Assembly: GCA_964610335.1 (NCBI GenBank)
Contig: CAZSVP010000001.1
Span: forward strand, 223,442-287,441
From: an uncultured Candidatus Saccharibacteria bacterium
Lineage (GTDB): Bacteria; Patescibacteriota; Saccharimonadia; CAILAD01; BJGX01
Length of the DNA: 64,000 bases
Reading direction: 5' to 3'
Shown here: positions 41,865-55,865 of the stretch, piece after piece
How the letters are laid out: each line of letters opens with the position of its first letter
Numbering within the stretch: the stretch's first letter is position 1
Notes under the pieces: model-generated
Databases searched by the model: none
What the model saw: the letters and a program-made list of their open reading frames with translations, nothing else
Told to the model about the DNA's origin: nothing
Program-made: the position numbers and the translations under genes

Positions 41865-41876
41865 AATAACTACAAG

Positions 41877-41910
41877 AAAAAGACCCTTTTTTGAAAGGGT
41901 CTTTTTCTTT
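41877..41910. terminator. Bidirectional rho-independent terminator
   Basis: aaaagaccctttt-ttgaa-agggtcttttt, flanked by an A-run and a T-run, between convergent genes. Confidence 0.7.
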
Positions 41911-50758: not shown

Positions 50759-50879
50759 AGGGCTCATCATAGCTTATTTACCCTGGTTTGTAAAGGGTTT
50801 TGCAGTGATGTCGCAATGGTACTATACTGTCCATAAGCTTTTGTGAGCTTGGAAGTACAAAGTAGTGGAGCCTTCTTGG

Positions 50880-51900
50880 CTCAGTTGATCACGAAACGCA
50901 CTTCCGGGTGTTGTTCACAATCAAGCTTGCCTGCTGTGCCCCCGCGTCGAGCGGGGATAGATCCGAAGCAGTAGGTACCGCACCGCGACAACGTTGAAAG
51001 GGGGTATCCATGGTCGCCATCCGTGGATCCACCGCAGCCGTCGCTTCCATCACCGCAGCCAAGAAGAAGAGCTGCACCGGGAGCGCCCGTCCCTGATCCG
51101 CCCGACGACAACCAGGGGGAACCTCATGGTTCGTGACCGCGCATCGCCTGCGTGATCTGTAGGCTCCGGCCTGCAAACCGGCCGCTCCGGCGGTCCACAG
51201 GTGCACTGGGTGCCTCAAGGGGAAAATGGTAAGTAGGTGCTTGCACCGACGCCTCACCAGCCCGCAAGACCAGGCCCAATACCAGCCTGGCACATTCGAG
51301 CCGCACTCACAGCGGCATGTGCCGGCGAGCCCCAGGGTTCGCCGGCACAGCTCGTTATTATCGACAAATTGGTGTTTTTGCGCTATATTTCGGCTACGGC
51401 TCTTTTGCAACTGAAAGCGGTAGGGAAAGCAATCTGATGGGATCGAGCACCTATTAGAAACGCAATCCCAAACCACGATTTACTAGTGCCTGATCACTTA
51501 CTTCCCTACATAGTAAGTGATGATGCGCGGCATCGCGTCCGTGTGGGTAGCTTCATATGTTTGTTGAGGGGTCCGCCGCCGCCGGATCGCGCTCCAGGCC
51601 TCTATGTAGTGTAGCTAGTAAGTCGCAGTTGCAACTGCCAAGACCAGATCGAGTGTCGGTAGGGAGCTGCTATACCCTACAGAAGTGAGACGAGCGGACA
51701 CGTGATGTTGTCTGACTCAGAGCATCCCAAAGCTCGCAGTCTCACCGATCGACTGGCATGCCCTCCGTGTAGCCGGAGGCAGATGCATGTGGTTCTATTG
51801 GGCCTCACCACCGCTGCATCATGATACCAAGGCTCATAATCGTGCCCTTAGTGTCAAACCTCGCCACCCGTAGCCGTCGGGTGGCGTTGTCCGTTATTAT
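50880..51900. other. About 1 kb GC-rich, hairpin-dense segment with no credible ORF. Candidate structured RNA or decayed foreign DNA
   Basis: No ORF of 60 aa or more in any frame across 51480-51940. The only long ORF (50889..51476, minus strand) translates to implausible composition. Many perfect hairpins are present, including ggcacat..gccgc-actcaca-gcggc..atgtgcc, gccggcga-N10-tcgccggc, atcacttact-N9-agtaagtgat and gcagttgcaactgc. Confidence 0.35.
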
Positions 51901-51939
51901 GTTGAAATGTTTTGACAGTAGTGGTAGTATAGGCACGAT

Positions 51940-52716
51940 ATGCAGATACTCGAATTAGCAGCCAAATTACAATCGATCGGATTGAGCGACAAACAGGCCA
52001 AGGTCTATGTAGCCGCTCTTTTTTTGGGCCCCAATTCAGCCCAGAAGATCTCCCAACAAGCCGATGTCAATCGCGCTACCACCTATGTAATACTCGAGGA
52101 ATTGATGGAGATGGGCTTAATTAGCCAAAGCTCAGTGGGTAAGAAGACTGTGTTTGTCGCCGAGGGCGCCGATGCCATCGATCGCCACATCGAGTCGGTC
52201 AAGAAAGAACTCGAGGCCCAACAACAAGAGCTCAAGACGATTGCCCCGGAACTTGAATCAATTGCCCGCAAAGATTCTGCTTCGGCTCCTCAAGTGTTTT
52301 TCTTCAAGGGCAAAGAGGGTATTGAACAGATCAACAGCTACTACTTCAAGAATAGTAAGCCCAAATCTACTAGCTATATATTCTCTGATCGAGACAAGGT
52401 TAAAGAAATTATTCCGCATGCTTTTGAGCAGCACAAAGCTAATCGCAAAGCCAAACAGATTGCGTCGCGTGGAATAGCATACGATTCTACAGGTGAGTTG
52501 GTCAACGTTAAGTCAGAGAAGAAAGAGCGCAAGCTAGTCGACATTCGTCCGGCCGCTGAGATCACTATGCAAGAAGACTTTGTGATGTTTGCCACTTACA
52601 ATACTCATGAGCATGTTAGTGTAGTACTGGAAAGTCCCGAGATTGCTGAGGCTTTGCGACAGATATTTGATCTTGCTTGGCAGGGTCTTCCAGCCACCAA
52701 GAAGTCAAAAAAATAA
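51940..52716 (+). CDS. TrmB family transcriptional regulator
   Basis: N-terminal wHTH (LGLSDKQAKVYVAALFLGPNSAQKIS...VNRATTYVILEELMEMGLI) and a C-terminal TrmB-like domain. Confidence 0.7.
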   Translation: MQILELAAKLQSIGLSDKQAKVYVAALFLGPNSAQKISQQADVNRATTYVILEELMEMGLISQSSVGKKTVFVAEGADAIDRHIESVKKELEAQQQELKTIAPELESIARKDSASAPQVFFFKGKEGIEQINSYYFKNSKPKSTSYIFSDRDKVKEIIPHAFEQHKANRKAKQIASRGIAYDSTGELVNVKSEKKERKLVDIRPAAEITMQEDFVMFATYNTHEHVSVVLESPEIAEALRQIFDLAWQGLPATKKSKK

Positions 52717-53157
52717 CACCTTGATTAGGTGTTATCTTTATAATAATTGCTCATACATCGATGTCTGCAGTAAATAGCAGCCCCAAAACATCGAGACCTC
52801 CGAGGCTCCAACGAATGTACGTCAGAGCAGTGAGGGTGTTTTTAGTATCCATCTGGGGATGGATTTGAGTCACTTGTTAGGTGATCTAATCACAGATGCA
52901 GTTAATCAGTCGTCAGCGCCCATGGTGGGCCCCTTTCGGTCTGAATAAACCAGCATAGTGACTGCGCTACTAGGTGGTAGCGTGCACTTGGCAGATCACG
53001 CAGCGGACAGGGACGGTGGTACTTCGGTTGTTGTGGTACATTTGAACGTCTCCCGGTGTCGGGTGGATGTGACTGTGACCAAAAGCATTGGCTTAAAGTC
53101 ACCTATATCATAACTCTTTGCATTATTTTGTCAATATTTATCGACATAAACGGAAGC

Positions 53158-53184
53158 GACCCTAGCCCAGTTAGGGCTAGGGTC
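53158..53184 (-). terminator. Hairpin gaccctagccc-agtta-gggctagggtc downstream of the Cys-rich gene
   Basis: Read directly. Confidence 0.45.
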
Positions 53185-53263
53185 GTGACCCCATGTACTC
53201 GCTTTTGGTAAAACGAGCTGCAAGAGACACATGGCTTCCTTGGACGGCTAGAGCTGATCAGGC

Positions 53264-53887
53264 TCAGTGCCCATTGCACCAGCCGTTGTTGCAGTTGCTG
53301 CACTTGCCACATCCGCTCTCGGAGTGTGAGCAACCGCTGGCCAGGATCTGGGCGACCTCGCGATTGGCGCCGTTGATGCCGGCCACCTGTAGCTCTGCTT
53401 CGTTGCTCACGCAGTTGAGTTCCGCAGAGGGTGCTGAACGTGAGCACTTGCCGTCGTTGCCACCACCACCTCGTGCGTCGCAGAAGGCGGTGGCCGTCCA
53501 CAACACGGGGTTGTAGCTGATGCCGTGCTTGTCCATGAAGGCAGTGGTGTCGCCGATGGTCATGCCGGAGCTGGGTTGCATTGGGTTGTCGGCTGGCTCG
53601 TGGTGGATGAACCGTCCGGCCACGCGCTGGCAGAAGCCGGCGTAGGCCTTGGTGTACAGGATGAAGGTGTGCCAACCGATGTCGACCGGCTTGCTTGGCG
53701 CGAAGTTCTGGTCGGGGTAGTCGGCGCACATCTTCAGGAACCCGAGGGCTCCATCGATGATCAGCTCAGCGGCTTCGCGGGTGACGCCTTCGTCGTCGAC
53801 CACGCGGTTGGCTAGCCGGTCGTAGAGGACCGGATGCACCAGCTCGCTGATAGGTGGGGTGGCCGTGATGGCCTCGTTGGTAAGCAT
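53264..53887 (-). CDS. Hypothetical 207-aa protein with a Cys/Gly/Ser/Asn-rich C-terminal tail (high-GC islet)
   Basis: Start MLTNEAI with an aggaga RBS (the track ORF extends to 53929). Ten Cys in the last 75 aa, ending GCSHSESGCGKCSNCNNGWCNGH. Confidence 0.5.
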   Translation of the reverse strand: MLTNEAITATPPISELVHPVLYDRLANRVVDDEGVTREAAELIIDGALGFLKMCADYPDQNFAPSKPVDIGWHTFILYTKAYAGFCQRVAGRFIHHEPADNPMQPSSGMTIGDTTAFMDKHGISYNPVLWTATAFCDARGGGGNDGKCSRSAPSAELNCVSNEAELQVAGINGANREVAQILASGCSHSESGCGKCSNCNNGWCNGH

Positions 53888-53980
53888 GATGCTCTCCTGG
53901 GGGTGTCTCTTGCTTGTGGGTGAACACACAAACTGTCATGTATCATCAACAGTATGTGATATGCGTATAATATAGTATCT

Positions 53981-54018
53981 TATACTATTTTGTCAATAAC
54001 TATTGACAAAATAGTATA
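53981..54018. promoter_or_regulatory. Perfect 18-2-18 bp palindrome (T)ATACTATTTTGTCAATA-AC-TATTGACAAAATAGTAT(A) containing back-to-back TTGACA -35 boxes of divergent promoters
   Basis: Read directly. Downstream -10 candidates are TAACAT on the plus side and TATTAT on the minus side. A related half-site TATTTTGTCAATA lies at 53124-53136. Confidence 0.55.
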
Positions 54019-54097
54019 CAACGCGTAACATACAGTTATCACTTTGGTAAATCCTTGGTGACCAGTCTCAACCTTTACATCGAAAAGAGGTAGCACA

Positions 54098-54190
54098 GTG
54101 CGAGACAGACCAGTCCTGGCAGAACCGCTGCCGTCTCCCACATCTCCACCGACAGATCCCGCAACCCCCGAAGATATTCCTTGGAAGTAG
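54098..54190 (+). CDS. 30-aa Pro-rich peptide ORF
   Basis: GTG start after aagagg. VRDRPVLAEPLPSPTSPPTDPATPEDIPWK. Coding status uncertain. Confidence 0.3.
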   Translation: MRDRPVLAEPLPSPTSPPTDPATPEDIPWK

Positions 54191-54231
54191 TATCCAAGAC
54201 ACTTCGGCCGACTACATAGAGAGGAGGGGAC

Positions 54232-54324
54232 ATGTCAGGAGGCGACAACGCCGATTCGGCGAACAGCACCGGCGGCAGCCAGAGCGGCAGCCAGCAGGGC
54301 AACGACACCGGTTGGGGCAAGTGA
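54232..54324 (+). CDS. 30-aa Gly/Ser/Asn-rich peptide ORF
   Basis: Strong RBS gaggagggg 4 nt upstream of the ATG. MSGGDNADSANSTGGSQSGSQQGNDTGWGK. Confidence 0.35.
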   Translation: MSGGDNADSANSTGGSQSGSQQGNDTGWGK

Positions 54325-54344
54325 TCCCAGCCGACACCAGCTGC

Positions 54345-54388
54345 TTGTGCGAGCCCCCGAAAGGGGGCCGCACAGGTGGCGATTTTTA
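54345..54388 (+). terminator. Rho-independent terminator gagccccc-gaaa-gggggc with a T-run
   Basis: Read directly, immediately after the peptide ORFs. Confidence 0.6.
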
Positions 54389-54471
54389 TGTAAGTAGTTG
54401 TTGGAGCTTGTAAAACCTTGACAAAAGAGCTTATGTCGGGTATAATTGCGCATTAACTAAATTATTGAGCT

Positions 54472-55506
54472 ATGCAAAACGATCTTACCCCAAAACAACA
54501 AGCCGTTGAGCTGATGCGACAAGCCAACAACATCTTGCTTGTCACCGGCCAGCAACCCACCCACGACCAGTTCGCGGCAGTGATTGCTATGCAAACTGTG
54601 CTAACCCGCTTGGGTAAGCGTGTCGATATGGTAGTAAGCGATACTTTTCCTCGTAGTGCCGAGCTGTTTCACACTGGCAAGGTCAGCCGTGATATCAGCG
54701 GTATTCGTGATTTCATCATCAAGCTTCGCATGGACGACGTTGAGGTAGAAAAGCTCAAGTATCAGGTAGAGAATCAATCTCTAGATATCATCATCACCCC
54801 ACACAACGGCAACTTCAGCCCTGAAGACGCCACTTTTAGCTACGGTGCTTATCAGTTCGACCTAGTAATTGCTGTGGGCGTGCCACAGATCACCAAGCTC
54901 GACAAGATCTTGGCCGACAATCCAACTATCTTCGATGGCTTGCATTTGATCAATATCGACTACCACCGTATCAACGAAAACTACGGTAGTGTTAATCTGA
55001 TCGACCCTCAAGCCACAGCTGTATGTGAGATGCTGATTAGCTTGTTTGAAAGCCTAGATGCTGGCATGATCGACGAATATGTCGCTACAGCCATACTGAC
55101 AGGCATCATGAGCGCCACAGCCAACTTCACTGCTCCTCAAACTACTGCCAAGGCCATGACTATGGCTGCCCAGATGGTAGCTGCTGGTGCCAAACAACAA
55201 GAGGTGGTACGTGTACTCGGTGGTGGCCGCAACTCACAGAGCAATGATCGCTCTAATAACTCTGGTAGATCCGATAAGAAAGATGAGCCCAAACAGGATT
55301 TTAAACCTGTAGAAAAAGCTGCTGAAGATAAGATTGAGCAGCCAAAAGAAGCTCCAGAGCCTAAGCCCAAAGCAGAAGAGGCTAATCCTGTCGAGCCCAA
55401 ATCTGATGCAGAAGACAAAGCCGTAGACCAGGTTGAACAAAAGATTGATACGGACACTGGATTTGCAGGATCTACTCCTATTATTTCACCAAGTCCTCTC
55501 GGTTAG
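54472..55506 (+). CDS. DHH/DHHA1 family phosphoesterase (NrnA-like) with degenerate metal-binding motifs and a K/E/P-rich C-terminal tail
   Basis: DHH-like region INIDYHRIN (DYH where DHH is expected). The N-terminal motif is THDQ rather than DxD. Confidence 0.6.
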   Translation: MQNDLTPKQQAVELMRQANNILLVTGQQPTHDQFAAVIAMQTVLTRLGKRVDMVVSDTFPRSAELFHTGKVSRDISGIRDFIIKLRMDDVEVEKLKYQVENQSLDIIITPHNGNFSPEDATFSYGAYQFDLVIAVGVPQITKLDKILADNPTIFDGLHLINIDYHRINENYGSVNLIDPQATAVCEMLISLFESLDAGMIDEYVATAILTGIMSATANFTAPQTTAKAMTMAAQMVAAGAKQQEVVRVLGGGRNSQSNDRSNNSGRSDKKDEPKQDFKPVEKAAEDKIEQPKEAPEPKPKAEEANPVEPKSDAEDKAVDQVEQKIDTDTGFAGSTPIISPSPLG

Positions 55507-55512
55507 ATACAC

Positions 55513-55541
55513 TTGACAATATAGTCAATATGTGGTAATAT
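55513..55541 (+). promoter_or_regulatory. Near-consensus sigma-70 promoter TTGACA-N17-TAATAT with an extended -10 TGG
   Basis: Read directly, about 70 nt upstream of ORF 55611. Confidence 0.5.
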
Positions 55542-55610
55542 GCTAGCCAGCAAGATTTATCTTGCGGCTCTCTCAAGTACATCCACAACCCCTAGCCCCT
55601 AGGAGGGGAC

Positions 55611-55865
55611 ATGACACATCCGGATCAGATCCGAATCAACGAATGGTGGCTAGCCGAAGGGCTCGGCGCCAGCGCCGACATCGGCTTGGCCGCCACACCT
55701 CGTGGTTCCAACCATTCGATGATGGTGGCAGATCGTGAGCGGGGCATCAAGTCCACCGCGGCTGCCAAAGCCGAGCTCGTCGCCGACGGTCTCATCGACG
55801 AGGCCGGCCGGCTCACCACCAAGGCCAAGGAGATGGGTCTGCGCATGCCGGAGCGACACCGGTAG
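55611..55865 (+). CDS. Hypothetical small protein (high-GC islet)
   Basis: 84 aa with an aggagggg RBS. Confidence 0.4.
   Translation: MTHPDQIRINEWWLAEGLGASADIGLAATPRGSNHSMMVADRERGIKSTAAAKAELVADGLIDEAGRLTTKAKEMGLRMPERHR

Follow-up and report, generated by a model that had tools for sequence, protein, structure and literature searches.

The 64,000-nucleotide stretch of Candidatus Saccharibacteria DNA analysed here, termed the window, contains a perfect 38-bp palindrome between two units that read away from each other. The leftward unit would consist of the gene for a Cys-tailed UCP032817-like protein of 207 residues, and the rightward unit of a ~290-nt transcript with two 30-codon open reading frames (ORFs), denoted pep1 and pep2, and its own terminator (Table 1). 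The neighbours are housekeeping genes, encoding S20, a TrmB-like regulator, a DHH-family protein, ICMT, TruB, S15, and PNPase, and the mean guanine-plus-cytosine (GC) content of the window is 47%. The palindrome probably serves as a common control region for a pair of sigma-70-type promoters placed back to back. An earlier note on this DNA had described the palindrome, a TTGACA box in each arm with spaced -10 hexamers on both sides, and two 30-residue ORFs with Shine-Dalgarno sequences and a clean terminator. All of these are found in the sequence: 18 of 18 arm positions pair, a promoter consensus scan agrees on the hexamers, and both ORFs and the terminator are in place.

Table 1. Features of the locus, in window coordinates unless another contig is named.
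Feature	Position	Strand	Description
Regulator's own promoter, degenerate dyad	51900-51917		TGTTGAAATGTTTTGACA, 4 mismatches
TrmB/DUF7342-family regulator gene, candidate dyad binder	51940-52716	+	PF01978 E=4.5e-12, 46 bits vs 25.6-bit cut-off
Conserved stretch behind third promoter	52730-53100	-	95.7% identity to L001 vs 71-88% in neighbouring coding sequences
Third promoter	53107-53146	-	-35 TTGACA 53129-53134, -10 TATGAT 53107-53112; aims at 3' end of TrmB-like gene
Terminator of 207-aa gene, intrinsic	53157-53185	-	12-bp stem; conserved in alignment A6
207-aa protein gene	53264-53887	-	residues ~10-133 form the PF27765 domain (all-alpha), followed by 8 Cys in a 74-residue tail; Shine-Dalgarno AGGAGAG 53892-53898
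Leftward promoter of 207-aa gene	53967-53996	-	-35 TTGACA 53991-53996, 18-nt spacer, -10 TATTAT 53967-53972
Perfect 18-2-18 palindrome, 38 bp	53981-54018		TATACTATTTTGTCAATA-AC-TATTGACAAAATAGTATA; 18/18 complementary, 2-nt spacer
Invariant 24-bp core	53988-54011		TTTTGTCAATA-NN-TATTGACAAAA; constant between related loci
Rightward promoter of two-ORF transcript	54003-54031	+	-35 TTGACA 54003-54008, 17-nt spacer, -10 TAACAT 54026-54031
pep1, 30-codon Pro-rich acidic ORF	54098-54190	+	GTG start, Shine-Dalgarno AAGAGG
pep2, 30-codon Gly/Ser/Asn-rich ORF	54232-54324	+	Shine-Dalgarno GAGAGGAGGGG
Terminator closing pep1-pep2 transcript	54340-54387	+	18-bp stem, -36.8 kcal/mol, then T5
DHH-family gene promoter	54418-54446	+	TTGACAAAAGAG...TATAAT, 12/12 consensus match; right-hand boundary of swappable right cassette
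Cargo genes of L122 (contig coordinates)	5313-5849, 6087-6245, 6392-6619		178-aa allele, 52-aa peptide, 75-aa protein

The palindrome and its two promoters

The palindrome is the longest of hairpin type in the window. Its arms of 18 nt compare with longest arms of 8-11 in shuffled sequence (20 shuffles, local composition kept), and the 18-nt half-site occurs three times with at most three mismatches, where 0.03 occurrences are expected. Within the core, the half-sites GTCAAT and ATTGAC are spaced 10 bp centre to centre. Exact copies of TTGACAAAA number five in the 64 kb, four of them being promoters inside one 1.3-kb stretch. Rfam matches, sought at the gathering threshold over the whole window and at E<=10 over 52650-54480, were limited to chance miRNA-like hits on the palindrome itself, and ARAGORN had no match in the window. 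A viral origin was considered and rejected, a scan of viral contigs having returned no copy. The second-longest palindrome of the window, a 16-4-16 structure at 41874-41909 (AAGAAAAAGACCCTTTTTTGAAAGGGTCTTTTTCTT), lies where two convergent ORFs meet and resembles a bidirectional terminator.

Both strands carry near-consensus hexamers at the 16-18-nt spacing of sigma-70-type promoters. A gap of 6 bp separates the two -35 hexamers, which are on opposite strands with one TTGACA in each palindrome arm, and the consensus scan also offers an alternative leftward -10, TATATT, at 16-nt spacing from TTGACA. From these elements we infer transcription in both directions. A further back-to-back -35 pair at 50789-50804 serves S20 and an insert at 50880-51480.

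Nineteen contigs of this locus were compared, among which seven distinct versions of the control region are found. The 24-bp core is identical in all seven, whatever genes flank it. The leftward -10 TATTAT (ATAATA on the plus strand) is kept in all variants but L120, which has TTATCA, and the rightward -10 is TAACAT, TAATAT, or TAACTT wherever the rightward unit is of the window's type. In L121, both -35 boxes and the leftward TATTAT are kept, with TATACT as the rightward -10 instead of TAACAT. The promoter region overall is 77% identical to that of L001.

Outside the core, the length of the perfect run per arm differs among the seven versions, from 18 in the window through 16, 15, 14, 13, and 12 to 11. 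The outer pairs vary: pair 14 is C.G, T.A, or, in L090, a C.A intermediate, and pair 13 is T.A or C.G. Both have been altered complementarily on the two arms (T.A to C.G; C.G to T.A). Such matched changes fit selection for symmetry and also template-switch mutation, and alone they decide nothing.

An explanation that dispenses with a regulator, and that is considered rather unlikely, holds that two copies of one strong promoter module (TATTGACAAAAT...) lie back to back. Each spacer would then be the AT-rich upstream region of the other promoter, and the arms would be alike through intrastrand template switching or gene conversion. Both arms do contain a consensus -35 accompanied by conserved -10 boxes, the four promoter copies of TTGACAAAA within 1.3 kb fit local copying of such a module, and the -35 pair at 50789-50804 is a second back-to-back arrangement. 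However, the symmetry of the dyad exceeds the need of a promoter, given the long perfect runs in seven variants and the presence of the dyad at one-directional promoters as well, and the distribution of the dyad described below also speaks against the module.

The TrmB-like regulator and recurrence of the dyad

Members of the TrmB family are dimeric winged-helix regulators with inverted repeats as binding sites, and one such protein is encoded 1.3 kb from the palindrome. Its C-terminal part gives a weak match to DUF7342. The NCBIfam TrmB and TrmBL1 equivalogs reach 18 bits against cut-offs of 600-650, which is no indication of a sugar-sensing C-terminal domain like that of the characterised archaeal TrmB. 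Named homologues belong to Saccharimonadales and other Patescibacteria, and a literature search found no paper joining TrmB and Patescibacteria.

The dyads of the window are concentrated near this gene. At up to three mismatches, the palindrome and the site at 53129-53146 are the only matches in 64 kb, and the matches with 0, 1, and 4 mismatches all fall in 2.1 kb around the regulator gene. The second site, the degenerate dyad TGTCAATATTTATCGACA with one mismatch, lies inside the third promoter; its left arm is the -35 of this conserved leftward promoter, and the right arm is turned towards the 207-aa gene's terminator. The earlier note had reported a related half-site at 53124-53136, and the site can now be extended to 53124-53149, whose 26 nt are 88% complementary to 53988-54013. 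The third promoter is conserved in L001, L087, L090, L120, and L121. In L117-L119, whose regulator is 59% identical, the equivalent site reads TTTTGTCAA-N6-TTGACAAAA, a perfect dyad immediately next to a terminator.

The four-mismatch dyad falls in the regulator's own promoter and is a possible autoregulatory site. About 3.5 dyads of this quality are expected in 64 kb, and the chance of one inside the 60-nt promoter region of the regulator is ~0.003. The pattern TGTTGAAA..TYTGACA is also retained ahead of the orthologous TrmB genes in L001, L111, L113, L115, L117, L120, and L121, six further lineages among them. The orthologous TrmB loci of more distant lineages have dyads at the same positions. 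Conservation of a degenerate dyad in the spacer of the regulator promoter, where a promoter needs none, argues against the two-module explanation.

Beyond this locus, public metagenome contigs were scanned for exact matches to the core. It is found in 17 contigs representing ~12 independent loci, with GC contents of 30-53%. A plausible -10 stands on both sides in about three of the 12 and on a single side in seven. The second arm abuts the terminator of the upstream gene in three contigs, L094, L097, and L098. Because most loci have a one-sided -10 and some arms abut terminators, two promoters do not account for the symmetry; the dyad is kept in both situations, which the promoter-module explanation would not predict. 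One of the contigs, L110, has ~350 nt without an obvious gene (1925-2280) between the palindrome promoter and a TrmB-like gene. This segment starts GGGGATTGACACATTCGAC, similar to the 5' end of a tmRNA; a tmRNA was therefore considered, and ARAGORN and Rfam were both negative.

The regulator family is also associated with the recurring core. A hidden Markov model profile built from 60 homologues of the window's regulator matches three genes in the 17 palindrome contigs (in L096, L107, and L110), each less than 600 nt from the palindrome. It matches no gene in 96 kb of unrelated Patescibacteria loci, and the local gene alone in the 64-kb window. Three of 12 loci with a TrmB-like gene correspond to a binomial P of ~1e-3, a rough estimate with a generous baseline of one gene per 100 kb. 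This association is a further point against two promoter modules without a regulator.

Together these comparisons favour, with slightly better than even confidence, a dyad that is the operator of a dimeric regulator, the TrmB/DUF7342 protein being the best candidate, and that is shared by both promoters. The earlier note had proposed divergent promoters over such an operator, and its proposal gains comparative support from the conservation of the core and -10 boxes, the recurrence of the dyad, and the link to TrmB-like genes. The core TTTTGTCAATA-N2-TATTGACAAAA would be bound by the dimeric winged-helix protein, and one bound dimer would span the two -35 boxes, so that both transcription units would be switched together, repression being the simplest mode. 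The weaker dyad at 53129-53146 would control the third promoter, which is predicted to transcribe a conserved stretch towards the regulator gene, and the still weaker dyad would act in the regulator's own promoter.

Several points weigh against an operator for the TrmB-like protein. In the DNA retrieved, a TrmB-like gene is missing from nine of the 12 independent palindrome loci, one locus has an IclR-type regulator instead, and the baseline density of TrmB-like genes comes from ~160 kb of sequence only. The requirement of a perfect core makes the metagenome scan silent on the frequency of imperfect dyads. In the L118 lineage the divergent promoter has a partial dyad only, and in other Patescibacteria loci no such dyad lies upstream of genes for the same protein family. 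The complementary arm changes can arise by template-switch mutation without selection, and part of the arm conservation is due to promoter function alone, because the arms are consensus -35 boxes.

The proposed operator resembles known TrmB systems in that the neighbouring protein has the winged-helix domain PF01978 and the site is an inverted repeat with half-sites one helical turn apart over promoter elements. In Thermococcales, the glycolytic TrmB-family motif is TATCAC-N5-GTGATA. The present case differs from archaeal TrmB in its operator sequence, in a C-terminus of DUF7342 type with no sugar-binding domain, and in its Patescibacteria-like host, and binding here is predicted. The classical divergent promoter pair with a shared operator is tetR/tetA of Tn10, where two divergent units are likewise governed from one short intergenic region through symmetric sites; here, in contrast, a single dyad coincides with both -35 hexamers and the regulator gene lies outside the divergent pair. 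Warman and colleagues reportedly described, in Nature Microbiology in 2021, bidirectional promoters that arise from symmetric shared -10 elements, with start sites ~18 bp apart. Both arrangements would derive divergent transcription from the symmetry of promoter elements, although at the present locus it is the back-to-back -35 boxes that are symmetric, with separate -10 boxes.

Exchanged genes beside a stable control region

The core persists while the genes on both sides of it are replaced. In L121-L124, whose regulator is at least 90% identical, homology of 92% covers the segment between S20 and the 207-aa gene's stop codon, where it is interrupted. A second homologous segment (91%) begins at codon 13, takes in the 5' untranslated region and the palindrome, and stops at 54013; a third (90%) opens at 54413, just ahead of the DHH promoter. 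The left cargo of these strains is a 178-aa UCP032817/GRDP-like allele, 36% identical to the 207-aa protein and with the same first 11-13 codons. Their right cargo is a 52-aa basic Lys/Thr/Gly-rich peptide, with a GC content at third codon positions (GC3) of 89%, and a 75-aa AT-rich protein. L118 has several other small genes at the same position.

In L120, which has a 16+16 perfect palindrome, the left gene (240-398) is reduced to 52 codons for six N-terminal residues and a Cys-rich tail 84% identical to that of the window. An in-frame deletion between two AACGARGC repeats removed the whole N-terminal domain, and the tail-only gene still lies behind the 32-bp perfect palindrome. The idea that this islet is more conserved than its flanks was rejected, DNA identity to L120 being 89% in the tail and 78-84% in the flanks.

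Such exchange could be expected if the dyads were recombination sites, either as cassette boundaries or as inverted repeats of an invertible segment, which would explain the differences in gene content. Two related dyads, the 26-nt arms that are 88% complementary, do flank the 207-aa gene, cargo is replaced on both sides of the palindrome, and TTGACAAAA bounds the right cassette on both sides. Yet no recombinase gene is among the called neighbours, 19 of 19 contigs of the locus share one orientation, and an inversion would leave the pairing of promoters and genes unchanged. The left breakpoints lie within coding sequence, at codon 13 and the stop codon, which points to homologous recombination through conserved flanks and not at the dyads. 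A recombination function of the dyads is therefore regarded as very improbable.

The 207-aa protein was placed by the earlier note in no known family. It has a precomputed Pfam annotation, on the exact protein (L003) and on all 107 homologues, as PF27765 (UCP032817-like), so that this part of the statement does not stand, whereas pep1 and pep2 are still unplaced. The local copies of Pfam, NCBIfam, and PADLOC gave no match to the protein or the peptides; for the 207-aa protein, the local Pfam is silent because it predates PF27765. Pfam also had no match for P0228. PF07173 (GRDP-like / DUF1399) gives no match to the 207-aa protein at E<=0.1, and on the 178-aa allele it stays below threshold (19.7 bits vs a 22.7-bit cut-off). 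No papers on UCP032817 were found, and those on DUF1399 concern plant GRDP only. The fold has no solved relative.

In 102 sequences, P64, D69, W72, H73, T79, C86, H95, H96, P98, and W130 are invariant. The protein resembles PF27765 in its annotation, in the invariant D69, W72, H73, C86, H95, H96, P98, and W130, and in a C-terminal Cys motif, with a distant link to PF07173, which itself has no match here. It differs from usual members by its tail. The earlier note had counted 10 Cys within the last 75 residues; 10 is the number for the whole protein, and the last 75 residues hold 8 Cys and 2 His. Short C-terminal motifs rich in Cys occur throughout the family, whose tails usually span ~15-30 residues compared with 74 here, and the long tail is common only to the close orthologues P0001-P0004 and partly to P0018. 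A metal- or redox-related role would be a reasonable guess.

Scanning one genome per species yielded 296 relatives, from Actinomycetota and several Patescibacteria lineages. In about 18 of 80 actinomycete loci, XRE/WhiJ-like regulators lie near the family gene, together with proteins that look DUF6879- and DUF397-like by their sequences. Conserved neighbours were considered as a clue to the function of the PF27765 family, and this actinomycete regulator pattern was uninformative.

Base composition suggests that the 207-aa gene was acquired from Actinomycetota. It has 63% GC and a GC3 of 82%, compared with 47-60% in its native neighbours. In every Patescibacteria locus examined (L007, L008, L010, L024, L030, L031, L036, L047, L067, L077, L079, and L081), the PF27765-family gene is 7-20 GC points above the surrounding locus, and the excess extends to a genome whose GC content is 34%. 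Such an excess would fit either repeated transfer from high-GC donors or unusually slow amelioration. A rough neighbour-joining tree divides the Patescibacteria members into two groups, each with actinobacterial neighbours, which fits repeated transfer between phyla.

Translation of pep1 and pep2 is regarded as likely. In L088, pep1 has an in-frame 12-nt deletion, and eight of its 13 substitutions fall at third codon positions. Of the six differences between pep2 and its L001 counterpart, five are synonymous; pep2 also has a GC3 of 84% vs 52% at first codon positions and a strong Shine-Dalgarno sequence, and six public contigs carry it as a called gene. pep1 is not called as a gene in public data. 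The terminator structure behind them is kept in L001 and L088 through different bases. Against translation stand a 15-nt deletion between AGGAGG repeats, which leaves L088 without the Shine-Dalgarno sequence and ATG of pep2, and a tblastn search of 90 loci, which matched pep1 and pep2 in near relatives only. Neither peptide has a Pfam or NCBIfam match.

The promoter that the earlier note had placed at 55513 is present. It belongs to an 84-aa gene at 55513-55865 with 64% GC, a GC3 of 76%, no family match, and a foreign look. The gene has a Shine-Dalgarno sequence and start context like those of pep2 (AGGAGGGGACATG), and its promoter TTGACAATATAGTCAATATG contains the half-sites in opposite order.

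The locus could also be a small peptide-natural-product or metal-handling module, an improbable alternative in which the Cys tail, or its 52-aa version in L120, is a precursor or metal-binding peptide and pep1 and pep2 are its partners. In its favour are the 8 Cys and 2 His in 75 residues, the survival of the tail as a 52-aa ORF at 84% identity after deletion of the N-terminal domain, and the invariant D, W, H, C, H, and H residues, which could bind metal. Nevertheless, no maturase, protease, or transporter gene is among the neighbours (TrmB, S20, DHH, ICMT, TruB, S15, and PNPase), and NCBIfam, Pfam, and PADLOC are without a match. Short Cys tails are family-wide, and the peptides contain no Cys and are replaced by unrelated peptides at the same place in other strains. 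The earlier note's comparison of the tail to the core of a ribosomally synthesized and post-translationally modified peptide lacks support on the same grounds, namely the lack of a nearby maturase or family-model match and the occurrence of Cys tails throughout the family.

Under the operator reading, the promoter-operator scaffold looks native and stable, and the high-GC3 cargo looks foreign, resembling Actinomycetota, and swapped between strains. A broader and more doubtful proposal is that the TrmB-to-DHH stretch is a fixed "expression dock" of Saccharibacteria-like bacteria, in which native AT-rich promoters and a TrmB operator would drive transferred high-GC3 cargo that is exchanged. This cargo may comprise Cys-tailed UCP032817/GRDP-like proteins and tiny hydrophilic peptides, both Actinomycetota-like. 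Were this true, TTTTGTCAATA-N2-TATTGACAAAA would be the first recognisable regulator-operator code shared across Patescibacteria. To our knowledge, little has been reported on transcription regulation in Patescibacteria (candidate phyla radiation, CPR), and no paper was found that ties their common TrmB-like regulators to a DNA site. The locus would pair one regulator family with one 24-bp dyad that recurs in unrelated contigs, a concrete and testable relation, and would place genes with an Actinomycetota-like codon signature, swapped between strains, under native control. Its added interest is that the dyad recurs across Patescibacteria and that the control scaffold appears to outlast the foreign-looking genes. 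As far as is known, cultivated Saccharibacteria grow on actinobacterial hosts, which makes the cargo a reasonable candidate for host-interaction or stress functions. If the link to the regulator fails, an unusually tidy yet ordinary bidirectional promoter is left.

The conserved stretch and an insert near the regulator gene

The most conserved DNA of the neighbourhood is 52730-53100, between the third promoter and the TrmB-like gene's terminator. This stretch folds with a z-score of -3.1 and has no Rfam match and no conserved long ORF; a non-coding RNA and a mini-ORF leader are both candidates. Among its mini-ORFs with strong Shine-Dalgarno sequences are MYHNNR... (15 aa) and MGADD; their counterparts in L087 and L120 are a 21-aa ORF that shares 11 of its 21 residues, and MTGGNGK. 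L117-L119 also have a 16-nt block of the stretch, GCTGCTATTTACTGC. An ORF of 33-40 aa at 52751-52873 was rejected because of frameshifts in L001.

Between S20 and the TrmB-like gene, 50880-51480 is an insert of 64-66% GC that is found in L003 and L121 and not in L001. Its sole long ORF, of 195 aa and on the minus strand, matches no family and looks non-coding; the insert also includes a 14-bp hairpin (51318-51349).

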